In this document: positions 33,980 to 58,350 of the stretch, one piece after another | Layout: the number at the start of each line of letters is the position of its first letter | Numbering within the stretch: the stretch's first letter is position 1 | Source of the DNA: Minisyncoccota bacterium | Lineage (GTDB): Bacteria > Patescibacteriota > Minisyncoccia > Phycocordibacterales > Phycocordibacteraceae | Reading direction: 5' to 3' | Length of the DNA: 64,000 bases | NCBI GenBank assembly: GCA_041664265.1 | Contig: JBAYLD010000002.1 | Location: 35,505-99,504 of the forward strand | Notes under the pieces: model-generated | What the model was told of the DNA's origin: nothing | Databases searched by the model: none | What the model saw: only the letters and a program-made list of their open reading frames with translations | Program-made: the position numbers and the translations under genes

Positions 33980-35260
33980 TTAGTATCTCGAGGCACTCAG
34001 TCCGAGGCCGTAGGCTACGCTTGTGAATGCATCGATTGAAAGAAGCTTCTCCTCTCCGAATCGGCTTGAAAAGATCTTGCGGATTCTCGGTATGAACGAG
34101 GACCCGCCGGTTAAAAGAACTGAATCAATGTCTGATGCAGAAACCCCAGAGCGAGAGAGCACATCATCCACGCACTCCTCGATCTTTTGGAATTTGTCTT
34201 CCGCCAGCGTCTCGAACTCCTCCCGCGTAATTGTTTCGTGAATCTCTATACCTCTTTCGCAAAAATCGATGACTGACGAACTTTCGTTGGATAATTCGCA
34301 TTTCGCCTTCTCGATAACACGGAATAACTTGTACCCGAGATTCTCTACAACGAGAGTACGGAGATTTTCCAAGGCACGCTGGTCCTCCACACCAACTCCG
34401 GGGAGAGACCGCATGAATTGGAGTGTCTTTCGATCGCGAAGCAGTGGAATCCTATGCCACTGACATAGGGTATGCGGAATCCACGATGGGAAATCGAGAA
34501 TCTGACCCCCGGGCATCGGATTCAGAGTTCGTACCCCTCTGCCAAAATGCTTTGCCAACTTCTCCCACATAATGGAAGCATCTAAGGCATCGCCCGCAAC
34601 ATAAACACCGCCTGTGGCGAGAATGTCACTTTTCCGATTCTCATTCGGATCATGTTTCCCCCCACGAAGTCGCATTACTACGAAATCGGACGTTCCTCCC
34701 CCAAAATCACCCATGAGCACTAGTTTCTCTTCTCCCTCTCGAAGATGTGATTCATGCGCCATGGTCGCCGCAATCGGTTCATACATGAAGTGAACATTGG
34801 TAAATCCGGATCGTAATACTGCATCCCTCAACCTTTCTTCGGCAAGGAGATCTAATTCCTTATCCTCAGAAAAGACAACCGGGCGTCCAATAATGACCGT
34901 ATCCACTACATGTCCAGCATGAAGCTCTCCGCGATGTTTAACAGCCTTCAGAATCAGAGCAATTAAGTCTTCAATCTGGTAGCGCTTGCCAAAAACATAC
35001 GTCTCGACAAAACTTCTGTCTGGCAAGAATGCCTTAATAGACTGCATGAAGCGTCCATACGTCCCACCATAGTCTAAATACTGATCTATGGCGTCCTGTC
35101 CGATACTGATGCTGTTCTCCTCATCGAAGAAAAGCACCGACTTGAGAGATTCTCTAGAACTACTGGTTGGATCAATGTCTACTATCTCCACATTCCCATC
35201 TTGCGCAATGGCAAGTATGGAATTTGTGGTTCCGAAATCAAGACCAAAGGTTATACTCAT
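33980..35260 (-). CDS. Hsp70-family ATPase, nucleotide-binding domain only (no substrate-binding domain)
   Basis: GLDFGTTNS, DFGGGTSD, VLLTGGSSFIP phosphate/adenosine motifs; 426 aa. Confidence 0.75.
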   Translation of the reverse strand: MSITFGLDFGTTNSILAIAQDGNVEIVDIDPTSSSRESLKSVLFFDEENSISIGQDAIDQYLDYGGTYGRFMQSIKAFLPDRSFVETYVFGKRYQIEDLIALILKAVKHRGELHAGHVVDTVIIGRPVVFSEDKELDLLAEERLRDAVLRSGFTNVHFMYEPIAATMAHESHLREGEEKLVLMGDFGGGTSDFVVMRLRGGKHDPNENRKSDILATGGVYVAGDALDASIMWEKLAKHFGRGVRTLNPMPGGQILDFPSWIPHTLCQWHRIPLLRDRKTLQFMRSLPGVGVEDQRALENLRTLVVENLGYKLFRVIEKAKCELSNESSSVIDFCERGIEIHETITREEFETLAEDKFQKIEECVDDVLSRSGVSASDIDSVLLTGGSSFIPRIRKIFSSRFGEEKLLSIDAFTSVAYGLGLSASRY

Positions 35261-35387
35261 TCCATTCTCCTTTCTTTTACGTTATTGAGTTATTCAAGGT
35301 TCAATTGTCCTGTCCTCACTGCATCCAAAGAGAGCGTATCATAGAATGTGCATGTTGGCAAGACCCGTCCTTGCGTATCAAATATAA

Positions 35388-35402
35388 ATATGGTATAAAC
35401 TA
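35388..35402 (+). promoter_or_regulatory. extended -10-like TATGGTATAAA upstream of B12-radical SAM operon
   Basis: about 65 nt upstream of ATG 35467; RBS GGGAAGGAG. Confidence 0.35.
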
Positions 35403-35466
35403 TACAGTCTAGTTCGTTCTTTGAAAGCCCAATAAACGTCAAATAAAATTAGGGAAGGAGTCAGCA

Positions 35467-37026
35467 ATGTCAGCAAAAACAATAGCACTGGTTACACCGC
35501 GCACCTTGTCACACCGAACCGCCGAAGAAACCCTGGCCCTGGGATATCTTGCCAGCGTCTTACGTGAAAACGGCTATTTGGTCACTATCGTGGATGGCTG
35601 GCTTCGCGGCATCAGCTCGTCTGAAATCGTCAACATCATCGCCAAAGATGTCCCGGACATCATCTGCATGTCCAGCTACCGTTCGAACCTCGAACAAGCA
35701 AAGGAACTTCTTGGAGCCATAACCGGAAGATTTGGGAACATCCCCACAATATGTGGCGGATATGGCCCAACCTTCCATGACAAAGATTTCTTAGACGCTG
35801 GATTCTCCGTGGTTGTTCGTGGTGAAGCGGAGCACATGATTGTGTCTCTTATTGACGAAATTGTATCGCACCGCAGTTTGTCCAGTGTCCCTGGAATTAC
35901 CTTCAATAATTGCAATGCCACAATTCGCACAAAACGCGTCGAGTCGATTCGAAACATCGACTCAATACCGTTCCCTGCACGCGATGAAATCGGATTTGCA
36001 ATCAAAAGGAAAAACCCAGTCCACGTTTGTACCTCTCGTGGTTGCGAAGCTCATTGTTCATTCTGTTCAATCTTTGCATTCGCGAGTGGTGCTTCTAAAA
36101 TGCACCGCTGGCGAGGGAGAGTAGTTCAGAACATCATTGATGAACTTCGCTACTTGTACGAGGAATTCGGCGTCACCCATATTAAATTTGTGGATGACAG
36201 TTTTCTCGAACCCCCACGAGATAGTCACTGGGTTGCTGAGTTCGTGGAGGCATTGTTGAGACATAATCTACCGTTGCGTTTTAGAACGCAGGTTCGTGCC
36301 GACAGACTCAACGATGATATCGTTAGAGGTTTGAAACAGGCCGGATGGTTCGCGACAAGTGTCGGGATAGAGAATGCCTCAGCATCCGCTCTCAAGCGAA
36401 TGGGGAAAACATCCTCGTCAGAGGATAATTGGAAGGCTCTGGAATTGCTACGCCGACACGGGATCTATGTGCAGATGGGAATGATTCTCTTTGACGATGC
36501 AACAACTATCGACGAACTTGAGACAAATTACCGCTTTCTTGTGCATCACGATTGGGTTGTCACAAAAGGGATCTTCTCGGAGATGTTTGCTGCGACGGGA
36601 ACGCTCTACACCGAGAGATTGTCTCGCGACGGACTTCTTGTGACCAACAAAGAACAAAACCACAGTTACCTAGTGAGGGACATTCGAGCAATGCGTGTGT
36701 ATCAAATGCTTAAGGCATGGCACAAATCACACGCGAGTCTTTATGACTGGGTCATTGACCCAATCACGGCTCCCAAGGTATTGCCGGATGAGGGTTATGT
36801 CTGTGTTCATGAAATCTGTAAGGAAATTATTACCTGTGACACACAAATGTTCCGCCGCGTTCTCGACCACGTGACATCTAGTGCGCCTGAAAGTGACGTT
36901 GATGTTGTAACATCCGCAATAACTGAGCAATCCCGTTTCTACGCTTGCATACAGTCGCAGATACAAGAGATTTACGATTGTTATGATCTCGTGTATGACG
37001 GGGTTCCAAACCAGTTCCTAAATTGA
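35467..37026 (+). CDS. B12-binding (class B) radical SAM enzyme
   Basis: N-terminal cobalamin-binding Rossmann region; CEAHCSFCS CxxxCxxC; 519 aa. Confidence 0.8.
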   Translation: MSAKTIALVTPRTLSHRTAEETLALGYLASVLRENGYLVTIVDGWLRGISSSEIVNIIAKDVPDIICMSSYRSNLEQAKELLGAITGRFGNIPTICGGYGPTFHDKDFLDAGFSVVVRGEAEHMIVSLIDEIVSHRSLSSVPGITFNNCNATIRTKRVESIRNIDSIPFPARDEIGFAIKRKNPVHVCTSRGCEAHCSFCSIFAFASGASKMHRWRGRVVQNIIDELRYLYEEFGVTHIKFVDDSFLEPPRDSHWVAEFVEALLRHNLPLRFRTQVRADRLNDDIVRGLKQAGWFATSVGIENASASALKRMGKTSSSEDNWKALELLRRHGIYVQMGMILFDDATTIDELETNYRFLVHHDWVVTKGIFSEMFAATGTLYTERLSRDGLLVTNKEQNHSYLVRDIRAMRVYQMLKAWHKSHASLYDWVIDPITAPKVLPDEGYVCVHEICKEIITCDTQMFRRVLDHVTSSAPESDVDVVTSAITEQSRFYACIQSQIQEIYDCYDLVYDGVPNQFLN

Positions 37027-37039
37027 AGGAGGTATTGAA

Positions 37040-38176
37040 GTGAAAATAGAAAATATAGGATGGACACTCGGAAACGATTGTCCATATAGATGTATACATT
37101 GTTACTCAACCATTGTCCGAAACAAGGGACGGAATCTGACGGTGCGGGACATCGAACGTATTGTCGGGCAAATTGCCTCTGTGAACGTGCGAACGGTAAA
37201 CCTTGGAGGAAATGAGCCAATCTTCACGAACGGCCTTAGCCTGAAAGACACCCTCCTGCCACACGTCGTCCGGTCTCTGTATGACGCGCACGTCATGGTT
37301 GGCCTCACGACGGCAGGAATTAGTTTGAACCATTTGGAACGGTTCTACCCAGAATCACTCTCGTTCCTTAACGACGTGGATGTTAGCCTAGATAGCCCCT
37401 TCTTCGAAGAGCATAACGCTAATCGTGGGGCACTACTCTTCAACCATGCACTCAAGGCATTGAGGATTTGTAACGAGTACGGAATCAACAAAACGATCGT
37501 GATGTGCGGAATGAATTGGAATTTGAGCAATCGACACATTGATGAACTAGTTCGGCTAGCGCGAAAATTTCGTGCTTTCATCAGAATAAATTTCATCAAG
37601 CCGACCGAGCCAGAACACATGGAGAAAGTACCTGACGCTACGACATATTACCGTGCGACAAACCGACTGCTCTCACAGTGCCATTCAGTCGAGATAGATG
37701 AGCCTTTGATTGCAGTCGCCGCAAATCTGCCTCACAAGAAGGGCTGTCCGTGTGGTTCGAAATCATTTCGGATTCACTCGATTACCCCTGACGGTACTGT
37801 GCCAGTTAGTCCATGCGTATTCGCGCATGATTACAAGGTCGGTGACATTCTTGTTGACGAACTCATCGATATTGTCGCTTTCGAGCAGTTCCGAGCTTTC
37901 ATTGACCGGTGTGCGAAACCAAGTTCCATCGAAGGGTGCCAGGACTGCCAGCACATTGAAACCTGCCGTGGGGGATGTGCGTCTCGCGCTTACCTCACCG
38001 AGAAGTTCAAAACTGGTAAAATTAATCTTCTTGTGCGTGACCCATATTGTATTCGGGATATGGAAAAAAATGGTTCGAAAAAGCCAACGATCAATAGTGT
38101 CGAGGAATTGTCACAACAAGGACTAACACTCGTGCATCGAGACTATCTTTGTACCATTATCGCAAAACCGAAATAG
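37040..38176 (+). CDS. radical SAM enzyme with C-terminal SPASM domain
   Basis: CPYRCIHCY CxxxCxxC; C-terminal Cys clusters GCPCGS...CQDCQHIETCRGGC; GTG start with RBS GGAGG. Confidence 0.8.
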   Translation: MKIENIGWTLGNDCPYRCIHCYSTIVRNKGRNLTVRDIERIVGQIASVNVRTVNLGGNEPIFTNGLSLKDTLLPHVVRSLYDAHVMVGLTTAGISLNHLERFYPESLSFLNDVDVSLDSPFFEEHNANRGALLFNHALKALRICNEYGINKTIVMCGMNWNLSNRHIDELVRLARKFRAFIRINFIKPTEPEHMEKVPDATTYYRATNRLLSQCHSVEIDEPLIAVAANLPHKKGCPCGSKSFRIHSITPDGTVPVSPCVFAHDYKVGDILVDELIDIVAFEQFRAFIDRCAKPSSIEGCQDCQHIETCRGGCASRAYLTEKFKTGKINLLVRDPYCIRDMEKNGSKKPTINSVEELSQQGLTLVHRDYLCTIIAKPK

Positions 38177-38198
38177 CTCATTGGTTCTTACATCAAAA

Positions 38199-38238
38199 AG
38201 GTTAGGCAATGTTATATGTTGCCTAGCCTTTTTTGTTT
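38199..38238 (+). terminator. rho-independent terminator
   Basis: AGGTTAGGCAA-TGTTATATG-TTGCCTAGCCT then TTTTTTG. Confidence 0.7.
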
Positions 38239-38246
38239 GTGATAAT

Positions 38247-38663
38247 ATGAATTCAGTTTATTTAGAATTAATTAATGAAAATATGCAGGATGATACAGTT
38301 AAGTCGACTGACTACGCTACAAAATTTATCGGCAGTGAAGTGGAAATAAAGATTGATCGCGCACTTCACTCAAAGCACCCTAAGTACGACTGGTCCTATG
38401 AGTTAAACTATGGCTTCGTTCCTGGCACGGCTTCCCCAGACGGCGAAGAGATTGACGCTTATCTACTTGGAGTAAATGAACCAGTGGAATCCTATAAAGG
38501 GAAATGCATCGCTGTTATTCATCGCCTTAACGATAATGATGACAAGCTCGTAGTTATCCCGACGACCATGGATAACGTGAGTGACGAAGATATTCAGAAG
38601 GCAACGAATTTCCAAGAACAGTTTTTCAAGTCTGAAATTACTCGTGGGTCTGAGAAGAAGTAG
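38247..38663 (+). CDS. inorganic pyrophosphatase-like small protein (weak assignment)
   Basis: SPDGEEIDAYLLGV resembles the PPase DGDPLDVLV region; start taken after terminator. Confidence 0.35.
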   Translation: MNSVYLELINENMQDDTVKSTDYATKFIGSEVEIKIDRALHSKHPKYDWSYELNYGFVPGTASPDGEEIDAYLLGVNEPVESYKGKCIAVIHRLNDNDDKLVVIPTTMDNVSDEDIQKATNFQEQFFKSEITRGSEKK

Positions 38664-42514: not shown

Positions 42515-43048
42515 TTACGCCTTCGCAAGTCCTTGGTTTTTACGCTGTTTGAGATACAGATTTTTGAAGTAGGTAGGGACATCGGGAAAATACTTCTTGA
42601 ACTGCTTTTCCGGCAAATATTGGATGGAGCGTATGATCTTCCGGCAGCCCTTTTGTCCGCACGCGCATTTCATTTCCCAGAAATCATCACCTTCTATAAT
42701 AGAGTAATCTATAGTTACCTCCTCGCCCTCTTTGATAGGCTTGAGGGCGACGATAACATACTTTCCTTTTACGCTCTTGTCCGACTTGTTAACAATGATA
42801 GTCCCATTGATTCCCGCATTAGGATTACACGAATGATTAAGATATTGATTAGGGTATTCAGGATCTATCCACTTATCTTTTCCCACACCTATCCAATTCG
42901 GATAAGAAAGGGACTCTTCTTTGTTGGTGACCGTAAGAAATCTTGCCTCACCACGTATTTCTTGAATGGCTTCACCCTTCTTAATTTTCTCTCCGGCAGA
43001 AACTCCCTTGCCTTCGATAGGACTTGAGCAAATATAAATATGCTTCAT
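42515..43048 (-). CDS. SET-domain protein-lysine methyltransferase-like
   Basis: NHSCNPN, EEVTIDY, post-SET CACGQKGCRKI; start at MKHIYICSS. Confidence 0.7.
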   Translation of the reverse strand: MKHIYICSSPIEGKGVSAGEKIKKGEAIQEIRGEARFLTVTNKEESLSYPNWIGVGKDKWIDPEYPNQYLNHSCNPNAGINGTIIVNKSDKSVKGKYVIVALKPIKEGEEVTIDYSIIEGDDFWEMKCACGQKGCRKIIRSIQYLPEKQFKKYFPDVPTYFKNLYLKQRKNQGLAKA

Positions 43049-43065
43049 GTTTTTCGGTGCCGCGA

Positions 43066-43074
43066 TTATACCAT
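43066..43074 (-). promoter_or_regulatory. extended -10 TGGTATAAT upstream of SET/helicase operon
   Basis: minus-strand CTTTATGGTATAAT, 18 nt before ATG, no RBS. Confidence 0.45.
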
Positions 43075-43108
43075 AAAGAAAGCCCCTCGTGGATATCCAC
43101 AAAGGGCT

Positions 43109-50353: not shown

Positions 50354-50424
50354 GTGGACCTACGGGGAGTCGGACCCCGACCTCGTGCATGCCATGCGCG
50401 CGTTCTACCGCTGAACTATAGGCC
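50354..50424 (-). tRNA. tRNA-Ala(GGC), atypical T-loop UCCGACU
   Basis: manual fold: acceptor GGGCCUA/UAGGUCC with G3:U70, D-stem GUUC/GAAC, anticodon loop AUGGCAU, T-stem CGGGG/CCCCG; one C-A mismatch in anticodon stem. Confidence 0.55.
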
Positions 50425-50539
50425 CGCTTTGTTTTTATATCTTACTTCCCTTTCCTCGCTTGCTCAAGCCGCGTTTGACTTTATTATACACTCATGCTAC
50501 TCTGCAAACAGAAAATAACCTGAATGAGGAGGTGTAGAA

Positions 50540-50980
50540 ATGAGAAAAGTTCTTTGCGTATGTATGACCAACACAGCCCGGAGCGTGATGCTGGCCGCCC
50601 TGCTCCGAAAAGTGCTCGGCGACGAGTCCCGGGTGGAGAGTGCTGGCGCTTCAAAAAAGGCCCGTGAGGGATCGCTGGCCAACGTCTATACCGACCATCT
50701 CATGCGGCATCGAGGGTTCAACCTCTCCGGTCACCAGAGCCGCTGGTTTGGGGATCTTGATCTCACTCAATTCACGCACATCGTGTGCGTGGATGAGAAG
50801 ACGGAGGAACAGGTTGTCTCACTCCTCGGTGGATACCGGATGATCGAGGTCCTCGTCGCCAATGAACGCGGCGGCGGGATACCCCTCGCACAGGGGGCGG
50901 GCTGGCAAGAACACCGAGCCGCTCTCTCTATAATGGAAAGAGTGGCTCCCGACATCGCGCGGCAAGTCCGTGGCGAATGA
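50540..50980 (+). CDS. low-molecular-weight protein-tyrosine phosphatase / ArsC-family protein
   Basis: P-loop CVCMTNTARS (CX5R); RBS GAGGAGG. Confidence 0.6.
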   Translation: MRKVLCVCMTNTARSVMLAALLRKVLGDESRVESAGASKKAREGSLANVYTDHLMRHRGFNLSGHQSRWFGDLDLTQFTHIVCVDEKTEEQVVSLLGGYRMIEVLVANERGGGIPLAQGAGWQEHRAALSIMERVAPDIARQVRGE

Positions 50981-50992
50981 GAAGGGCGGCTA

Positions 50993-51024
50993 AGCCCGGC
51001 GTACTAGGTACGCTGGGCTTTTTC
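50993..51024 (+). terminator. rho-independent terminator
   Basis: GCCCGGCGTAC-TAG-GTACGCTGGGC then TTTTTCT. Confidence 0.65.
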
Positions 51025-51129
51025 TATAACGCGCACGATTCCCCTTCTCATGCATCTGCTTCTTCCAAATAATACGTTATAATCAAATGGGTGTTCTTGG
51101 GCTTAAAAATCAGTTAGAAAGGAGAATCT

Positions 51130-51261
51130 CGTGAAAGATAAAAAATACGAAAAACCGGTTTTTATCAAGATGACCAAGATGACGTTCCTGCTCAACAGCA
51201 TCAAAACGAAGGGAAAAGGCGTCGTTTGTAGGCAGTGTTCTGGATGCCACGGCTGTCGATA
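51130..51261 (+). CDS. 43-aa Lys-rich peptide with Cys-rich C-terminus (CRQCSGCHGCR); candidate precursor peptide or metal-binding peptide
   Basis: GTG start 6 nt after RBS AGAAAGGAGAA; TATAAT at 51077-51082; terminator follows; not in ORF track. Confidence 0.4.
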
Positions 51262-51295
51262 AACCTCAAAACTCGGCGAGAACACCTCCCTTACC

Positions 51296-51327
51296 AAGCC
51301 TTCGGTTACTCCGAAGGCTTTTATTAT
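51296..51327 (+). terminator. rho-independent terminator
   Basis: AAGCCTTCGG-TTACT-CCGAAGGCTT then TTTATTATTG. Confidence 0.7.
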
Positions 51328-51423
51328 TGAACCATTACGGGAGCTTGACTTTTTCATGGTGGTATGCTAAGCTTTATCAAGGCAATTTGATCTCTCAAAT
51401 GAACGTGAGAAGGAGGTGCGGAA

Positions 51424-51861
51424 GTGAAGAAAAAAGTTCTTTGTGTTTGCGCTGGTAATACCTGCCGGAGTCCTATGATGGCAGCCTTGCTCCAAAAGGA
51501 ACTCGGTAACGAGTTCCAGATGGAGAGCGCGGGTTGGTTCAGGAATCAAGTTGGCGAGCCAGCGAGCGAAAATGCTGTATTTTTTATGAGGGTCAGAGGT
51601 ATCGATATCAGTGAACATAAAGCTCGCTGGATCAGAGATCTCGATCTCAAAGCATTCTCGCATATTGTGTGTGTGAATCCTGACATGGCATACAACATCC
51701 GGTCCAATCTCGAAAACGATCAGACAATGGTTCTCATCGCTGGAGTAGAGGTCGGAGGAGTGCCGGACCCGTATGGAAAAGGAAGAGACGCCTATCGTGA
51801 GTGTGCAAACCTTCTAGATAAGGCCATGCACGAAATCGCCGCGATAATCCGCAACTCTTAA
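51424..51861 (+). CDS. low-molecular-weight protein-tyrosine phosphatase
   Basis: canonical CVCAGNTCRS P-loop; GTG start with RBS AAGGAGG. Confidence 0.7.
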   Translation: MKKKVLCVCAGNTCRSPMMAALLQKELGNEFQMESAGWFRNQVGEPASENAVFFMRVRGIDISEHKARWIRDLDLKAFSHIVCVNPDMAYNIRSNLENDQTMVLIAGVEVGGVPDPYGKGRDAYRECANLLDKAMHEIAAIIRNS

Positions 51862-53744
51862 ACAACTGAAGCCCGACGTGATGAACGTCGGGCTTTCTTT
51901 ATTACACGGACTATTCCGTTGGTGGCATCCACTTCGATAAGATCTCCTGTTTTCAAAATCTGCGTCGCAACTTTGGTCCCCACGATGCAAGGAATTTTGA
52001 ACTCTCGTGAGAGAATCGCCGCATGCGAGACAATACCCCCTTCGTCAGTCACGATGGCTACAGATCTCTTACACGCCGCTATCATATCCGGTTTCGTCAT
52101 ATCGGTAACTAAAACTTCTCCAGACTGCACCGCGTACACATCGCCCCGCCGCGTATGTTTCTCGAAAATCACTCGCGCCTTTCCTGTCACTTTCCCGGGA
52201 TATGCAATCGACCCGACGATGATCGCTTTATCTTTTGGAGACGTTAATTCCTTGACTCGATGCCAAAGCTGGTCTGCGTCCTTTTTCAAAAAGATTTCCG
52301 ATTGTTTCTTTTTCCTTAGAACAGCATGACCTCGAGTCCGTTCAGCGATTATTTGTGCAGGAACCTTCTTCCCCTCTTTTGCAAGAGCGGTGAGCTCGTC
52401 AAAATCGTAGAAAAAGAGCTCTCCAGCAACGCGTATTTTATTTCTTCTGGCGATCTCGCCTAGCAATTGCCCTATGTATAGAAAGAAAAATTCTTTGGAG
52501 CAGCGCCTGAGCTTTAAGCGAATTTCTCCTATTTTTTTGAATGTCCGGTGGTTTGCCTTAACTCTCTCGAATTTCTTCATCCGCGACGCTTCGGTTTTCG
52601 TATATATCGCGCTGAATTTTTCCATCACACAAGTTAATGAAACGAGGGTCTTACGCATTTTCTCATCACTCAGTTTCTTGAAGTCGACATTCTTAAATTC
52701 TTGAGTAATTCGCTTCACTGTCGCTGCTATATCCTCGGCACGTTCCAAATATCTCTCACGGTTTTTCTGTTTCGAGAAAAAGGCATACCCCTTTTTCTCC
52801 TCATTGTCATGAGAACCGTTCAGATAAAAACAGTGACACATCTTCTTTTTGTAGAAGAAGATACTGGAGTTGCCCAGGTCGTGATTCGGGTTGGTAAGCC
52901 AAAAGAGCGGCATGGAGTTCTCTCTTGCCCAAAATTCAGCACTCCTTATTTCCGGCAAGAATGGAGATTCTTGCCCTTCACGAAGAGTTGTAATCGGGCG
53001 GCTCTGCACAATCCAAAACTTTCCTTCGGCATATGCCCACTCGACGTCGACCGGGAAGCCGTAATGATTTTCTATTTTTATGACTAACTTTGCGAGCTCC
53101 TTAATCTGTTGTTCCGAAAGTTTTTGCTCTCCTTGTGCGGTAACATCAATCAACGTGAGGTTATTCTTCGCTACCACGTAGCTATCCGGCGTTACCTGCC
53201 CGGACACCAGCTTCTCTCCAAGGCCGGAGACTGCCTCGATGATCATCTGATTATGGTCTTCGGTTACTGGATGCACCGAGAAGGCGACACCGGCAGTCTC
53301 AGCTTCAACCATCTCCTGTACTACCACCGCAACTGAGATGTTCGCAGTGTCGAGTCCTTGTTCAGAACGGTAGGAGACAGCACGAATAGTGAAGAGGGAC
53401 TCCCAACATTTCTCTACGTTCTCGAGCAGGTTTTCTTCCGTGGTGTTCAAATAACTCTCCAGCTGCCCCGCCCACGACGCACTCTTCGAATCTTCTGCAG
53501 TCGCGCTCGAGCGCACCGCGACCCGCTTCACACCGAGTTCTTTAAAAGCCTTTTTAATTTCTCCTGCCACATCCTCTGACATTTTCCCCTCCCCTTTAAA
53601 CTTCTCATAAGCACTTGAGAGAATCACAAACCCAGGCGGGACCGGTATCCCCGCCCACGTCATCTCGCCCAAGGACGCGCCCTTCCCGCCCGCGATCGCA
53701 GTGTCGTCTTTGGTTATGTCTTCAAACCACCGTATCCATTCCAT
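51858..53744 (-). CDS. PEP-utilizing enzyme (PpsA/PPDK-like ATP-grasp + phosphohistidine swivel domain, no C-terminal PEP/pyruvate TIM barrel)
   Basis: N-terminal nucleotide-binding region; C-terminal GGIVSHAAILSREFKIPCIVG mobile-His domain. Confidence 0.7.
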   Translation of the reverse strand: MEWIRWFEDITKDDTAIAGGKGASLGEMTWAGIPVPPGFVILSSAYEKFKGEGKMSEDVAGEIKKAFKELGVKRVAVRSSATAEDSKSASWAGQLESYLNTTEENLLENVEKCWESLFTIRAVSYRSEQGLDTANISVAVVVQEMVEAETAGVAFSVHPVTEDHNQMIIEAVSGLGEKLVSGQVTPDSYVVAKNNLTLIDVTAQGEQKLSEQQIKELAKLVIKIENHYGFPVDVEWAYAEGKFWIVQSRPITTLREGQESPFLPEIRSAEFWARENSMPLFWLTNPNHDLGNSSIFFYKKKMCHCFYLNGSHDNEEKKGYAFFSKQKNRERYLERAEDIAATVKRITQEFKNVDFKKLSDEKMRKTLVSLTCVMEKFSAIYTKTEASRMKKFERVKANHRTFKKIGEIRLKLRRCSKEFFFLYIGQLLGEIARRNKIRVAGELFFYDFDELTALAKEGKKVPAQIIAERTRGHAVLRKKKQSEIFLKKDADQLWHRVKELTSPKDKAIIVGSIAYPGKVTGKARVIFEKHTRRGDVYAVQSGEVLVTDMTKPDMIAACKRSVAIVTDEGGIVSHAAILSREFKIPCIVGTKVATQILKTGDLIEVDATNGIVRVIKKARRSSRRASVV

Positions 53745-53765
53745 TTCTCAAGTATATACCGTTTG

Positions 53766-53838
53766 TGGACCCTAGCGGACTTGAACCGCTTACCTCGTCA
53801 ATGCGAATGACGCGCTCTACCAGATGAGCTAAGGGCCC
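53766..53838 (-). tRNA. tRNA-Ala(CGC)
   Basis: GGGCCCU acceptor with G3:U70, D-arm UAGCUCAUCUGGUAGAGC, anticodon loop UUCGCAU, T-loop UUCAAGU. Confidence 0.8.
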
Positions 53839-53968
53839 TGCACGAGCGATTCTACCACGACCCCCGATTATTTTCATCGCCCTGTCCCACCACAGTATGC
53901 ACCCGCCGGGGTTGCATCTTCACAGAAACTTCATGTTAGACTGCCGACAGAATAGTTATTTTGACATC

Positions 53969-53984
53969 GGCCGCTTCGGCGGCC
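53969..53984 (+). promoter_or_regulatory. GGCCGC-UUCG-GCGGCC tetraloop hairpin in 5' leader of hydrolase gene
   Basis: perfect 6-bp GC stem with UUCG loop, 33 nt upstream of ATG. Confidence 0.4.
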
Positions 53985-54016
53985 TTAACCTGAAGAGGAG
54001 AGAAAGGAGGAGAAAT

Positions 54017-55084
54017 ATGCGTAGAAAAATATTGGTCCCGAAAAGAACCCCTGTTGCACCCCTATTGCGGCCGTGGATAGCCTCAATGGAGTACTGGGCG
54101 ACAATGATGAACCTGCCCCAGCACGACTGGAGTACGCCGCATCGGGTTGTCGCCGAGTGTGCCAATGCCAAACTCTTATATTTTGGCGGCAAGAAAACTG
54201 GGCGAGTGATGCTTATTAACCCGCCACAGGCGAGCCATAGCTCAAGCGGTTGCGACTTCGGTCCCGGTCGCTCGCTGGTACAAACGGCGGTCGCGTCCGG
54301 TATCGGCGAAGTTTATGCCATTGACTGGAAGAGCGCCGGCTTCGACCGACGAAATGAAGATATCGGCGATTTCGTCACCACCATGTACTCGTTCATCGAC
54401 GGACTCGATCGTGATGTCGATCTCAACGGCGTGTGTCAGGGCGGATGGCAGGCGGCAATCTATGCCGCATTGTATCCGGAAAGGGTTAGAACTCTCACGC
54501 TCGTCGCCTCGCCCATAGATTTCCATGGCGGGGAGAGCAAAATATCTGAATGGGTCAACGCCCTGCCGGACATCTGGTTCCAGAATCTGGTCGCGATGGG
54601 AAATGGCGTTCTCGACGGACGTTATATCCTGTTGGCATTTAAGATGATGCATCCGACAGAGCGGTTTGTCGAAGACAATTGGAAGCTCTATCTGAGCATT
54701 CTGGAAGGGAGATGGGAGGAAGTGCAACAGCAAGTTCATTTTAGGTCCTGGTATGACCGGGCCGTACAGAACCTGCCGGGTTCCTTCTACCTCCAAGTGG
54801 TTCGCGAGCTGTTTAAGAAGAATTCGCTGGTCAGGGGCGAACTAGAGATCCTCGGGCAGCGGGTAGATCTGAAAAAGATAACCTGCCCGACATTTCTCGT
54901 AACGGGTGATACCGACGATATCACCCCAGATCCACAGGCCTGTGCAATGAAGGACTGTGTGAGCACAAGCTGTTCCTGCCGGCACTTTGAAGTCGAGGGC
55001 GGGCATTTCGCCACCTTCGCCGGAAGTGGCGCAATGGGAAGATGGAAGGAAGAGATCTTCCCCGCCATCAAAACGGCGGGGTAG
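54017..55084 (+). CDS. alpha/beta-fold hydrolase, PhaC/PhaZ-like (GxCxGG nucleophile elbow)
   Basis: GVCQGGW lipase-box-like motif; start at MRRKILVPK after RBS AAAGGAGGAG. Confidence 0.55.
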   Translation: MRRKILVPKRTPVAPLLRPWIASMEYWATMMNLPQHDWSTPHRVVAECANAKLLYFGGKKTGRVMLINPPQASHSSSGCDFGPGRSLVQTAVASGIGEVYAIDWKSAGFDRRNEDIGDFVTTMYSFIDGLDRDVDLNGVCQGGWQAAIYAALYPERVRTLTLVASPIDFHGGESKISEWVNALPDIWFQNLVAMGNGVLDGRYILLAFKMMHPTERFVEDNWKLYLSILEGRWEEVQQQVHFRSWYDRAVQNLPGSFYLQVVRELFKKNSLVRGELEILGQRVDLKKITCPTFLVTGDTDDITPDPQACAMKDCVSTSCSCRHFEVEGGHFATFAGSGAMGRWKEEIFPAIKTAG

Positions 55085-55141
55085 GATACGAAAAAAGCAG
55101 ATAAGGAGGAAAAGTGTACACAGAAGACGAGCGCACAGGGC

Positions 55142-55178
55142 GGTGATTGCAAGAACTACGCAATCACCGCTTTTTTGT
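55142..55178 (+). terminator. rho-independent terminator
   Basis: GGTGATTGC-AAGAACTAC-GCAATCACC then TTTTTTG. Confidence 0.75.
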
Positions 55179-55197
55179 ATTCTCACCTCTCTTTCAG

Positions 55198-55268
55198 TCG
55201 GGCCGCCGGGAATCGAACCCGGTTCTTGCGCACCCCATGCGCAAATACTGCCGGTATACTACGGCCCG
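55198..55268 (-). tRNA. tRNA-Pro(GGG)
   Basis: C1:G72 acceptor CGGGCCG, anticodon loop AUGGGGU, T-arm CCGGGUUCGAUUCCCGG. Confidence 0.8.
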
Positions 55269-55286
55269 TTATGGAGATGTCCTCTG

Positions 55287-55357
55287 TCGGGCCGCCGGGA
55301 ATTGAACCCGGTCTACACGCACCCGAAGCGTGCGTACTACCGACATACTCCGGCCCG
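55287..55357 (-). tRNA. tRNA-Pro(CGG)
   Basis: C1:G72 acceptor, anticodon stem CACGC/GCGUG, loop UUCGGGU, T-loop UUCAAUU. Confidence 0.8.
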
Positions 55358-55375
55358 ACACAGAACACCTCCCGA

Positions 55376-55393
55376 GTGCGCCCTGCAGGATTC
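55376..55393. repeat. 18-bp duplicate of tRNA-Val 3' end (GTGCGCCCTGCAGGATTC)
   Basis: identical to 55526-55543. Confidence 0.7.
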
Positions 55394-55526
55394 TTTCCTT
55401 ACAGGAACAGTATACCTTGCGGATTTTTTGTTCACATTCGTTCCAAAAAATGCTCGCAAGGTCTTCTCATCCTGCACGCACGCCCCCCAGGCGTGCTAGA
55501 GCGCACTACGCCTGAAGACATGCTTG

Positions 55527-55600
55527 TGCGCCCTGCAGGATTCGAACCTGCGACCTTACGCGTGTGAAGCGTACGCTCTAACCAACTGAGCTAAGAGCGC
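55527..55600 (-). tRNA. tRNA-Val(CAC)
   Basis: D-arm UAGCUCAGUUGGUUAGAGC, anticodon stem UACGC/GCGUA, loop UUCACAC, T-arm GCAGGUUCGAAUCCUGC. Confidence 0.8.
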
Positions 55601-55629
55601 GCACACGACGTACCATACCAGACATTTGC

Positions 55630-56589
55630 TTAGATTCCCAGATTCGCGAGCGCGCTCCTCACTCTGCCGATCGGCAGGGCGAAGCCGATGTTCTGCGAAC
55701 CCTGCACCATCGCGACGTTGACGCCGACGGCTTCGCCCGTAAGGTTGACCAAGGGGCCGCCCGAATTGCCGGGGTTGATAGCGGCATCGGTCTGAATGAT
55801 GCCGGTCAAGGTCTCGGTGTTGCCTTGGCTATCTGAAGCGGTAATGCTCCGATCGAGCCCCGAGACGACCCCGACAGAGACCGAGTTGCTATATTGTCCA
55901 AGCGCATTCCCCACCGCGAATACTGACTGTGCGAGCCGGAGCGCCGAGGAGTCGCCAAGCGGGACAACCGGATACCCGCTCCCAGGGATCTTCACAACGG
56001 CGAGATCCTCGCTCGAGGAGCGCCACACGACCGTGCCCGACTGCTGGGCGCCGCTTGAGAGCAAGACGGTATACGTCGCGTTCGGCACATTCGGCACGAC
56101 GTGCTTGTTGGTGACGATATACCCGCTTGAGCGCACGAGGAATCCGGTCCCGGCCGAGATGCGTTCGGTCGTCGTGCCGACCTGCTCATACACCGGCACC
56201 CGTATTCCAAAATCGCGGAAGAAGGGATCATTACCAAACGGGTTCTCGTACGTTACTTGTAGCTTCGGCACTTCTCGGCTCTCGACGATCGAGACGACTG
56301 CTGGCGTCACCCTCGCCACGGCATCTTGGAGCGATAGCGTCTCCTCCTTCTGCACCACAATCTCACGCCGCACGGTCTCGGTAATGTTCGCGGCGGTGTT
56401 CGGTGCCGTCGAGCTCGCGAGCTCGGCGAGCTGGATGACTGAACCTTGGAGCATCGCAATGGAGTCTTCGAGCGTCGCTACCGAACGCGCGAGCTGCCCC
56501 CTCTCCTGATTCTCGTACACGAGCCCGCCCGCGAGTGCCACTATCGCTAGTAACGCCGCGAGCCAGAGATAATCAATGGTATCCTTCAT
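55630..56589 (-). CDS. trypsin-like serine protease (HtrA/DegP-family S1C, no PDZ)
   Basis: GNSGGPLV catalytic Ser motif, TNKHVV His region, N-terminal TM. Confidence 0.75.
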   Translation of the reverse strand: MKDTIDYLWLAALLAIVALAGGLVYENQERGQLARSVATLEDSIAMLQGSVIQLAELASSTAPNTAANITETVRREIVVQKEETLSLQDAVARVTPAVVSIVESREVPKLQVTYENPFGNDPFFRDFGIRVPVYEQVGTTTERISAGTGFLVRSSGYIVTNKHVVPNVPNATYTVLLSSGAQQSGTVVWRSSSEDLAVVKIPGSGYPVVPLGDSSALRLAQSVFAVGNALGQYSNSVSVGVVSGLDRSITASDSQGNTETLTGIIQTDAAINPGNSGGPLVNLTGEAVGVNVAMVQGSQNIGFALPIGRVRSALANLGI

Positions 56590-56714
56590 TTTTCCTATTA
56601 TACCGGATGCCGGGAGAATCGGTGCCTCACGATCGTGAGTGCCCCCTTATCCGCATTTATGGGGTGCGTTACCACTATGAACTCATGCGTACGCCGCATA
56701 GATGATGGGGAGCT

Positions 56715-58265
56715 TCATTTTGAAACGGTGAAGAACTTTTGCGGGATCTCATGCGCCGCGACAATAGATTCATTCTGGCTGTTCCTCTTGAGGAGAATGA
56801 TCATGTCGGTATCGAGGTATACAGGAGCCCATTCCGGATCGAACACTTTGGTAGTGATAAATGCTTGGCCCCACGGCGTATAGTCCCGGTAATAAAATAA
56901 AATTGCGTTAAATGCATAGGTTTTTTCCAATTCTTTGAAGAGAGCGGGATTCTCCATTGCGGCGATATATTCCCCATCAACAAATCGTTTGGTGTACGCC
57001 TCTGGGCGATTGTCGAAAAAGACCTTCTCACCTGGGAAAAGGCCGAAAATGGCGTATCCACCACTATCGTAGTTATTAAAGAGCGGCCCCTTGATTTCAT
57101 TTGCCTTGAAGAATTCAATGGCGTCATGAGCCCCCTCTTTGACGCCAATCCCGAAGTCGCTGCTCCGTTGTACCACCAGCCCCAGGGCGAGCACCATACC
57201 AGCCATTGCGAGAAGAAAAAAGAGCGGGAATGCCAGCATTTCTTTTGTGAGGAACTTGAACCTGCCGACCCCGTGCTCGCGAATTATTTCTATATTCGTT
57301 ACGGTTGCGGCAACGCCAACCAAGCCGAAAAGAGGAAAGTCCCGTATGGCAAACCAGCCCATGACACCATAGACCGCACTCACGATGAGGAGTGGCGCTG
57401 ATATTTTCCTCCACTGGACAAACGCGGCCACGATAGAGCTTACGAGCACCAACGCGACCAAAATCTTGTATGCAGAGAACGTATACGGATTCCCCATGTC
57501 CAAATGCTCCAAAAAGCTGATTGATTGGTTTTCAAATACTCGGTAGCTATATGAATCAAAGATATGAAAGGGGTATAGTGCGCCGCGTATAAACGAAGGG
57601 TTTGCCAACATCACCAGACAGGCAGCCAGCAACACGCGACCGAGCGCAACAGCTTTCGAAAAATGCTTGCGCACGAGAGACGATAAGAAGAAAACGCCGA
57701 TGATGAATGGGCCGAGGATAAACCCGACGTGCAGGTTTACCCAGAGGAGCTGTACGGCCGGCATGAGCCAGAGCCATTTTTTATCTATACTCCCTTCATC
57801 ATATCGCAGACACACCCACAGGAAGAACGCGGCAAAGAGGTAGGTGAATACTTCTGGCCGTACTTCTGCGCGAGAGGCTATCACCACGATGCCAACACAC
57901 GAGATGGTAAATAGTATCCACGGATGCGCCCTGTCTCGAATGAGGTCAAAGATAAGCCAAAAGGCAGCCACCATGCCGGCAATATAGAGAATGGATAACC
58001 CGGAAAAACCAACGACGGTGAAGAATAGAAAAAAGATAACACCCGACAACCAATGATGATTAACGAAGGGTGTACCGCCTTCGGTATACGAATAATAATT
58101 TGTCGTTACTACCGCGGTTCTCTCCGCGGCGCTCCCGGTCAATACTATTTCCCCATTCTTAATATGCCGACCGAGATCCGCGGTAAAAAGGTCGATCTTG
58201 ACCATGAGAGAAACAGTAAGGACGCTTGCCAATGCCAAAAACAATATCTTCTGGTTGGTCGTCAT
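56715..58265 (-). CDS. polytopic membrane protein with C-terminal soluble domain (possible GT-C-type glycosyltransferase)
   Basis: more than 10 TM helices; start at MTTNQKILF to avoid overlap with tRNA-Ala. Confidence 0.45.
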   Translation of the reverse strand: MTTNQKILFLALASVLTVSLMVKIDLFTADLGRHIKNGEIVLTGSAAERTAVVTTNYYSYTEGGTPFVNHHWLSGVIFFLFFTVVGFSGLSILYIAGMVAAFWLIFDLIRDRAHPWILFTISCVGIVVIASRAEVRPEVFTYLFAAFFLWVCLRYDEGSIDKKWLWLMPAVQLLWVNLHVGFILGPFIIGVFFLSSLVRKHFSKAVALGRVLLAACLVMLANPSFIRGALYPFHIFDSYSYRVFENQSISFLEHLDMGNPYTFSAYKILVALVLVSSIVAAFVQWRKISAPLLIVSAVYGVMGWFAIRDFPLFGLVGVAATVTNIEIIREHGVGRFKFLTKEMLAFPLFFLLAMAGMVLALGLVVQRSSDFGIGVKEGAHDAIEFFKANEIKGPLFNNYDSGGYAIFGLFPGEKVFFDNRPEAYTKRFVDGEYIAAMENPALFKELEKTYAFNAILFYYRDYTPWGQAFITTKVFDPEWAPVYLDTDMIILLKRNSQNESIVAAHEIPQKFFTVSK

Positions 58266-58277
58266 GACAATTACGAG

Positions 58278-58350
58278 TGGACCGTACAGGATTCGAACCT
58301 GCGACCCCCGCATTGCAAATGCGGTGCTCTACCAACTGAGCTAACGGCCC
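58278..58350 (-). tRNA. tRNA-Ala(UGC)
   Basis: GGGCCGU acceptor with G3:U70, anticodon loop UUUGCAA, T-arm GCAGGUUCGAAUCCUGU. Confidence 0.85.

Follow-up and report, generated by a model that had tools for sequence, protein, structure and literature searches.

We describe here a large family of cysteine-rich peptides, entered through a single open reading frame (ORF) of 43 codons that lies in a 64,000-nucleotide stretch of contig JBAYLD010000002.1, from a metagenome-assembled genome of Candidatus Paceibacterota, one of the bacteria of the candidate phyla radiation (CPR). The whole of this stretch is called the window below. The ORF stands between two genes for proteins related to low-molecular-weight protein tyrosine phosphatases (LMW-PTP), here named PTP1 and PTP2. 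Judged by its conservation, it is a genuine protein-coding gene, and we think it probable that it represents a functional, unannotated orphan copy of a precursor-type peptide, which comes from a large family, as yet undescribed, of the RiPP type (peptides made on ribosomes and modified after their translation). An earlier note on this DNA had flagged the ORF, which opens onto at least 243 clusters of related peptides and onto a cognate enzyme with about 2,400 relatives. The ORF positions, the peptide sequence and the two phosphatase motifs, CVCMTNTARS and CVCAGNTCRS, are as that note gave them; its count of five Cys in the last 11 residues has to be corrected, as these residues, CRQCSGCHGCR, comprise four Cys and one His.

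A conserved protein-coding gene

The earlier note had named a lack of conservation in related genomes, together with a lack of expression, as what would speak against its reading of the ORF. Relatives of the peptide were found at more than 119 loci in bacteria, archaea and viral contigs. The first two came from a word-indexed protein search, and one of them lies directly 3' of genes for a radical S-adenosylmethionine (rSAM)/SPASM enzyme and a PqqD protein; an unrelated metagenomic homologue matches the window with a tblastn E value of 1.7e-14. Scans combining a DNA pattern with tblastn, in which the QCSGCHGC pattern caught only a subset of the family, gave 8 confirmed loci in species-representative genomes, 24 contigs in the viral collection IMG/VR and 235 confirmed matches in metagenomes, 80 of which were kept. 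Seven of the genome loci encode a full-length peptide (in Woesearchaeota, another archaeon, KSB1, Desulfobacterales and 'Proteobacteria'), and the eighth, L014, matches the core only. A profile search of a 1.84-billion-protein library returned 243 representative clusters, defined at 50% identity, with E <= 1e-3, and 73 of these reached E <= 1e-10.

Conservation is concentrated at two places in the peptide. In an alignment of 124 members, P9, C36, H40 and C42 are invariant, and Y6, F19, C33, Q35, S37, C39 and R43 are at least 90% conserved. The profile-based sample, which is independent of the DNA pattern, places a core with the consensus C-[RKVHLMI]-Q-C-[SA]-x-C-H-x-C-[RK] at the very C-terminal end, most commonly in the form CRQCSSCHGCR, and the Tyr-to-Cys spacer that links leader and core is fixed at 26-28 residues. 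Synonymous codons vary at every conserved residue among 90 distinct DNA tails, which together use all six Ser, four Gly and six Arg codons, both Cys codons and the three stop codons. Such variation shows purifying selection on the protein rather than on an RNA or a DNA site; a non-coding RNA or a spurious ORF was rejected on the basis of this codon-level conservation and of an Rfam search, in which tRNAs were the sole matches.

No Pfam or NCBIfam model matches any of the 124 family members, no PHROGs family matches the three members tested, and a profile search of the PDB returned only chance matches to cytochrome c and superantigen structures. The core string CSGCHGC occurs in no paper of the literature searched, and searches of the same literature on phage RiPPs and on ranthipeptides with Asn synthase found no description of the peptide family. 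AlphaFold, given the 124-sequence alignment, predicts one short helix (residues 19-27) in an otherwise extended chain, with a predicted TM score (pTM) of 0.37 and the lowest local confidence (pLDDT 64-71) around the Cys cluster; the absence of a compact fold fits a precursor.

Several members are atypical. L006 (1128-1358), which lacks a start codon close to the leader, is read as a fusion of 76 aa; the leader of P0164 occurs twice in tandem; in P0218 the core is followed by an extra GCGGGN; and P0249 and P0260 are extended at the N-terminus by about 60 aa.

Radical-SAM/PqqD gene clusters

When the neighbours of the peptide at 119 loci were clustered, a recurrent gene order emerged: rSAM/SPASM enzyme, PqqD, peptide, then further enzymes. 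The rSAM/SPASM gene, hereafter the cognate rSAM, is present at 33 loci, always one or two genes upstream of the peptide, and a discrete PqqD protein at 22. The further enzymes are, in their order after the peptide, an optional N6_N4-type methyltransferase (15 loci), a protein of about 1000 aa with a metallo-beta-lactamase (MBL) domain (24), a squalene-cyclase (SQHop)/prenyltransferase-like toroid of about 270 aa (19), an Asn-synthetase homologue (28) and a GT1 glycosyltransferase (14). Some clusters also hold a B12-binding rSAM or a second SPASM rSAM (L075, L083 and L011), or a MatE exporter.

The earlier note had proposed looking for homologous Cys-rich peptides beside rSAM/SPASM genes, and the 33 loci above answer to this description. 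The link was also recovered from the side of the enzyme, which has about 2,400 relatives at E <= 1e-40, from Deltaproteobacteria, Desulfobacteraceae, Firmicutes, Ca. Aquicultor and one Ca. Levybacteria bin among the named sources. Two of these enzyme-first loci, L125 and L126, were opened, and in both the ORF directly after PqqD is a family peptide, uncalled in L125 and a CSSCHGCR variant in L126. As these two were found from the enzyme, they confirm the peptide-enzyme linkage without circularity.

The best curated models for the cognate rSAM are TIGR04340 (188-208 bits), AhbD (161-188), SbtM (150-164) and NirJ2 (138-160). All of these scores fall well under the curated cut-offs of 350-500 bits, so that the enzyme belongs to none of the four families. 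The Asn-synthetase homologue passes the asparagine synthase model TIGR01536 (334.7 bits, cut-off 267) and fails the lasso-cyclase model (149 against 525); in one peptide subtype it is cut down to a synthetase domain of about 270 aa. The best match of the cluster PqqD proteins, a weak one, is to the PqqD chaperones of lasso peptides. Taken together, gene order and homology indicate that this is an rSAM/SPASM RiPP system dependent on a RiPP recognition element (RRE), in which both the precursor family and the set of enzymes are new. The combination of rSAM/SPASM enzyme, PqqD, Asn-synthetase homologue, toroid, MBL protein and glycosyltransferase offers natural-product chemists a defined system that lends itself readily to testing.

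The N6_N4 methyltransferase gene directly follows the peptide gene (L001, 2251-2991; L009, L010, L012, L065 and others), and its product carries an atypical DGPY in place of DPPY or NPPY. It might methylate the peptide, for instance at the invariant Gln, rather than DNA. In the phage orphans L021 and L022, an unrelated methyltransferase occupies the same position after the peptide.

The family is under-annotated even where its enzymes carry annotation. The peptide gene of L125 (3942-4062 of MFNH01000009.1) belongs to a complete cluster and was left uncalled in the public NCBI annotation. In the window genome, the NCBI accessions have space for a single protein, PTP2, between PTP1 and the gene that follows; no small gene was called in a Logan assembly of this locus; PTP2 is called with a shorter start (127-128 aa); and an exact-sequence look-up of the window peptide and of PTP2 matched no record. 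A conserved gene of 43 codons can thus escape annotation, in this genome and in others.

Comparison with known peptide classes

Sactipeptides and ranthipeptides (for class background, see PMC10114670) are the classes that the family most invites comparison with. Like their precursors, the family members are short ribosomal peptides whose leader is rich in Lys and whose C-terminal core is rich in Cys, often encoded beside an rSAM/SPASM enzyme and a PqqD-type recognition element. They differ in that the core is near invariant, with its Gln, its His and four evenly spaced Cys, whereas cores of the known classes are variable; in that the clusters add the Asn-synthetase homologue, the toroid, the MBL protein of about 1000 aa and the glycosyltransferase; and in that more than half of the copies are orphans and no curated model matches. 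The window copy itself has the short leader and Cys core of a RiPP precursor (43 aa, YEKPVF...MTF, CRQCSGCHGCR). It has no adjacent maturase, which is found at the 33 loci and at L125 and L126, and there is no PqqD or RRE in the window, discrete PqqD genes being found at 22 homologous loci. A core that hardly varies between bacteria, archaea and viruses is uncommon among RiPP precursors, and points to a target, metal or cofactor that is itself conserved.

The earlier note had likened the peptide to SCIFF/ranthipeptide-type precursors. The precursor type holds, given a family encoded beside rSAM/SPASM enzymes at 33 loci; SCIFF was rejected, as the peptide has four Cys and not six and no SCIFF model appears among the NCBIfam matches, sought at E <= 1 for the window peptide and at E <= 0.01 for the 124 members. 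The SCIFF maturase model is likewise absent from the best 25 matches of the cognate enzyme. The ACGX system (TIGR04340) was also rejected: the cognate enzyme stays far below that model's own cut-off of 400 bits, and the peptide lacks an ACGX repeat. The likeness to ACGX, AhbD and NirJ enzymes is that of the best-scoring curated models, all below their cut-offs.

Lasso-peptide leaders contain a conserved YxxPxL motif (PMC10368454), which the family leader Y-x-x-P-x-[LFI] resembles, and the weak PqqD match and the Asn-synthetase homologue are further points of likeness. Against this, the recurrent neighbours include no B2-like protease, an Asp or Glu that could serve as acceptor for a macrolactam is missing from the core, and the Asn-synthetase homologue passes the asparagine synthase model but not that of the lasso cyclase. 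Of the lasso marks (leader motif, B2 protease, lasso cyclase and acidic acceptor in the core), the leader motif alone is present, and the family was not assigned to the lasso class.

The sequence CXXCH is the attachment signature of haem c, and attachment of haem in the periplasm requires a signal peptide. The core contains such a motif (C36-S-G-C39-H40), which explains the weak cytochrome c matches seen in several searches; these matches are at chance level (E 0.006-1.4), and no hydrophobic signal sequence was seen on inspection of the window peptide. The cognate rSAM is about as close to AhbD and NirJ, of the haem pathway, as to any peptide maturase model. It is conceivable that the invariant CXXCH core together with an AhbD/NirJ-like rSAM marks a cytoplasmic peptide-tetrapyrrole conjugate.

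Orphan copies in phages, archaea and CPR

Sixty non-redundant loci offered at least 1.5 kb of sequence upstream of the peptide gene. The cognate rSAM lies within 2 kb upstream in 21 of them, 2 have some other cluster gene, and 37 have none. None of the 24 IMG/VR contigs carries the cognate rSAM, and in many of them the peptide gene sits between or beside terminase and portal genes. The order is gpA-type terminase, peptide, lambda-type portal and protease in L018; terminase, peptide and portal/adaptor in L015; small terminase, peptide, large terminase and portal in L028; and peptide and portal in L016, while L021 has a terminase and a tail sheath upstream of the peptide and a methyltransferase downstream. 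The 63 large neighbours at 21 further loci without the cognate rSAM include portal, terminase, major head, tape-measure and baseplate families, as well as integrase, transposase and DNA-methyltransferase families. The Woesearchaeota orphans L007, L008, L052 and L054 adjoin a TrmB-type regulator, and in a few viral or short contigs (L030, L035, L045 and L074) the peptide is paired with the Asn-synthetase homologue alone.

Three of the four peptide subtypes are found both in clusters and as orphans. The leader motif is kept in 32 of 33 orphans and in all 36 cluster-linked copies, and both groups have the same Tyr-to-Cys spacing of 26-28 residues. That orphans keep both is hard to explain unless something still recognises the leader or the leader itself contributes to the function.

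The fourth subtype, with the end FNGGRFC[VILM]QCSGCHGCR, was seen only in phage-like contexts (L018, L024-L027, L030, L032, L035, L080 and L113). At the position of Arg or Lys in the other subtypes it carries a hydrophobic residue, and in L018, L024 and L025 it fills the gap between the large terminase and portal genes.

The window copy and the search for its enzymes

The nearest relatives of the window peptide form a GKG[VI]VC subgroup, made up of the cluster-linked copies L041-L044 and the phage-like orphan L006. No cognate enzyme was found in the window, which was searched over its whole length by tblastn with the rSAM and PqqD proteins of L001 and with profile hidden Markov models for seven cluster families. 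The sole match was a SPASM protein (37040-38176), which scores 56 bits against the cognate-family profile; members of that family score 353-796 bits in pairwise phmmer with one member. The window protein scores higher, 84.8 bits, against the mycofactocin maturase model, and is 22-26% identical to the cognate enzymes, while the adjacent B12-binding rSAM (35467-37026) is 21-22% identical to the B12-rSAMs of some clusters. A PqqD-like ORF was found nowhere in the window, either by the profile of cluster PqqD proteins or by tblastn. A further 10 kb on each side of the window were covered; they hold ribosomal, chaperone, UvrABC and other housekeeping genes and no cluster gene. Nothing cognate was thus present within the roughly 84 kb searched, a search that did not extend to the remaining 42 kb or so of the contig or to the rest of the genome.

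The genes of the window rSAM pair are separated by a 14 nt gap, without overlap. Upstream is a divergent HSP70/MreB-like ATPase (33980-35260, minus strand) and downstream a pyrophosphatase-like ORF of 160 aa; no precursor peptide or PqqD gene was recognised in this region (33980-38663).

A model for the family and its alternatives

How might the peptide act? In the full clusters, the leader, with Y-x-x-P-x-[LFI] followed by M/L-x-F, would be bound by the PqqD-type protein, and the bound leader would present the core C-x-Q-C-S-x-C-H-x-C-[RK] to the rSAM/SPASM enzyme, which most likely makes Cys-based cross-links. The Asn-synthetase homologue probably activates the C-terminal carboxylate, as the core is without Asp or Glu and always ends the protein. 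Further tailoring could be the work of the toroid, the MBL-domain protein, the glycosyltransferase and sometimes the methyltransferase. The window copy would either be matured in trans by enzymes encoded elsewhere or act unmodified; we lean slightly towards maturation in trans, since the leader motif and its spacing are kept in the orphans.

Several points weigh against this model. The type of modification is one that we infer for the family as a whole. About 60% of the informative loci are orphans, many of them in phages. The proportions of clusters and orphans are rough, coming from a sample biased by its viral collection and pattern-based scans. The search for cognate enzymes in this genome spans only the 84 kb mentioned above. 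The genomes of CPR bacteria are small, and clusters of this kind are usually scarce in them; the sole cluster-bearing contig binned to CPR, L125 of Ca. Levybacteria, is 8.6 kb long and could be misbinned.

The orphan majority makes a function without modification a serious alternative, and the main rival of our model is a small metal- or cofactor-binding peptide, acquired from phage DNA as an independent accessory gene, that would hold Zn, an Fe-S centre or haem on C-x2-C-x2-C-H-x-C. In keeping with it, most informative loci have no maturase, many orphans lie in phage head or packaging modules near terminase and portal genes, the four Cys and the His are invariant or nearly so, CXXCH draws weak cytochrome c matches, and the window gene has its own promoter-like site, ribosome binding site and terminator. 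We nevertheless hold this explanation to be rather unlikely. The peptide lacks the signal peptide needed for haem attachment in the periplasm, no compact fold is predicted around the Cys cluster, and a leader kept by orphans at a fixed distance is most easily explained by a leader-binding protein; moreover, the viral contigs L030 and L035 carry the Asn-synthetase homologue by the peptide, which suggests modification in phages too.

It is also conceivable, with a small probability, that the orphans of phages, CPR and DPANN are parasite look-alikes, matured by the rSAM/PqqD machinery of a host or jamming it. All well-resolved orphan contexts are phage or mobile DNA, Woesearchaeota or the window genome, whereas full clusters occur in free-living anaerobes (Desulfobacterales, KSB1, Firmicutes); the orphans preserve the recognition motif, and the sharing of three subtypes between clusters and orphans implies repeated exchange. 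However, the analysis identified no host-parasite pair, there is no known route for a CPR-encoded peptide to the enzymes of a host, a CPR lineage is itself the bin of one cluster-bearing contig, and the orphan genomes are incomplete, so that a cluster may lie elsewhere in them. With intact, leader-bearing copies present in the packaging modules of phages and in the reduced genomes of CPR and DPANN, one may ask whether parasites borrow or sabotage peptide maturation in their hosts; if they do, these copies would be RiPP precursors encoded by viruses and symbionts and engaged in host-parasite conflict.

The earlier note had suggested that the peptide could be the missing substrate of the rSAM enzymes at 35-38 kb. 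Both enzymes are of peptide-modifying types, some family clusters likewise combine a B12-rSAM with a second SPASM rSAM, and the best cognate matches of the window SPASM protein are paired with the nearest peptide subgroup (L041-L044). We consider this pairing very improbable all the same, and rejected the two genes as cognate enzymes: the similarity is generic and at superfamily level, lower to the cognate profile than to the mycofactocin model, no PqqD/RRE gene or domain accompanies them, and they lie 13 kb from the peptide with unrelated housekeeping genes in between.

The flanking phosphatases

PTP1 and PTP2 are 39.6% identical. The earlier note had called both 145 aa long and assigned them to the LMW-PTP/ArsC family; the length is right for PTP2 and one residue short for PTP1. 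Both pass the Pfam LMWPc model (PF01451, cut-off 23.2), with 37.8 bits for PTP1 and 73.0 bits for PTP2, and neither reaches the cut-off of an NCBIfam ArsC model (15-37 bits against 157-215). PTP2 has all the marks of an LMW-PTP, namely the PF01451 match, the C-X5-R-[ST] P-loop and the DP loop. PTP1 has the first two only; it aligns to LMWPc over residues 4-97, its N-terminal half, and lacks the second P-loop Cys and the DP general-acid motif. In the PDB, PTP2 matches best 4egs (62 bits) and YwlE, an arginine phosphatase (4pic, 49 bits), in alignments that include its DPYG motif, and PTP1 matches best YwlE (26.6 bits). A Thr in the P-loop marks arginine phosphatases (YwlE, CTGNTCRS) as against tyrosine phosphatases (CLGNICRS), and both P-loops here (50555-50584 and 51442-51471) have Thr before (C/A)RS, in NTARS and NTCRS.

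The two genes share upstream repeats. Direct repeat D1 (50522-50562 and 51409-51449, 73% identical) spans the ribosome binding site and start codon of both, and the promoter and ribosome-binding-site repeats are set 870-887 nt apart, which points to tandem duplication of a promoter-plus-gene unit.

When the neighbours at the other loci, about 118, were searched by phmmer with both proteins, no phosphatase was found beside the peptide, and where other CPR-like contigs carry a relative of PTP2, it is a single gene and the peptide is absent. From this distribution, the juxtaposition is specific to the window genome, and the phosphatases appear to be neighbours of the peptide and not its partners. 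A role of the peptide as partner of these proteins in the handling of thiols or metals, as the earlier note had in part proposed, or as their substrate, is hardly credible: its position between the two genes in one genome is the only evidence in favour, and the lack of such a pairing elsewhere, the separate terminator of each of the three genes and the ArsC scores all speak against it.

PTP2 adjoins a gene with PPDK_N and phosphoenolpyruvate (PEP)-utiliser (swivel-His) domains (51424-53744 for the pair), as also seen in Parcubacteria GW2011_GWA2_51_10 (L123 and L124, 4001-6631). The PTP2/PPDK_N pairing looks conserved and may unite a kinase-like enzyme with its phosphatase.

Organization of the locus

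The features of the locus are collected in Table 1. The earlier note's view of the peptide gene as a stand-alone unit of promoter, ribosome binding site and terminator is supported only by consensus scans and, for the ribosome binding site, by direct reading of the sequence. The promoter and terminators are consensus matches only, and the promoter scan saw one site where 1.9 were expected, which makes it weak alone.

Table 1. Features of the peptide locus in the window
Feature	Positions	Strand	Remarks
tRNA-Ala(GGC)	50354..50425	-	Left edge of the island holding both phosphatase genes and the peptide gene; ARAGORN; Rfam tRNA 55.2 bits
-35-like box upstream of PTP1, TTGACTTTATTAT	50475..50487	+	Direct repeat D4, spacing 870 nt
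PTP1, 146 aa	50540..50980	+	Divergent LMW-PTP-fold paralogue; CVCMTNTARS, C8-X5-R14-S
Terminator-like hairpin 3' of PTP1	50992..51020	+	13-bp stem, then T run
Promoter-like site of peptide gene	51045..51073	+	TTCTCA, 17 nt, AATAAT; consensus scan, 9/12 matches
Shine-Dalgarno-like AAAGGAG	51118..51124	+	6 nt 5' of peptide GTG; read from sequence
Peptide gene, 43 aa, MKDKKYEKPVFIKMTKMTFLLNSIKTKGKGVVCRQCSGCHGCR	51131..51262	+	GTG start; without annotation in public records
Leader motif Y6-E-K-P9-V-F11	51146..51163	+	Family consensus Y-x-x-P-x-[LFI]
C-terminal core C33-R-Q-C36-S-G-C39-H40-G-C42-R43	51227..51259	+	Contains CXXCH
Terminator-like hairpin 3' of peptide gene	51296..51320	+	10-bp stem, then T run
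-35-like box upstream of PTP2, TTGACTTTTTCAT	51345..51357	+	Second D4 copy
PTP2, 145 aa	51424..51861	+	GTG start; canonical LMW-PTP/YwlE-like; CVCAGNTCRS, C9-AGNTC-R15-S, D114-P-Y-G
PEP-utilising-enzyme gene	51858-53744	-	Convergent with PTP2
Bidirectional terminator-like hairpin	51868..51896	both	Common to PTP2 and the convergent PEP-utilising-enzyme gene

The tRNA that the island abuts is the first of six minus-strand tRNA genes within 8 kb (50354-58350; Ala-GGC, Ala-CGC, Pro-GGG, Pro-CGG, Val-CAC and Ala-UGC), with coding genes scattered among them. Elsewhere in the window, a SET-domain protein of 195 aa (42518-43102; Pfam SET 52.5 bits) adjoins a UvrD-like helicase.

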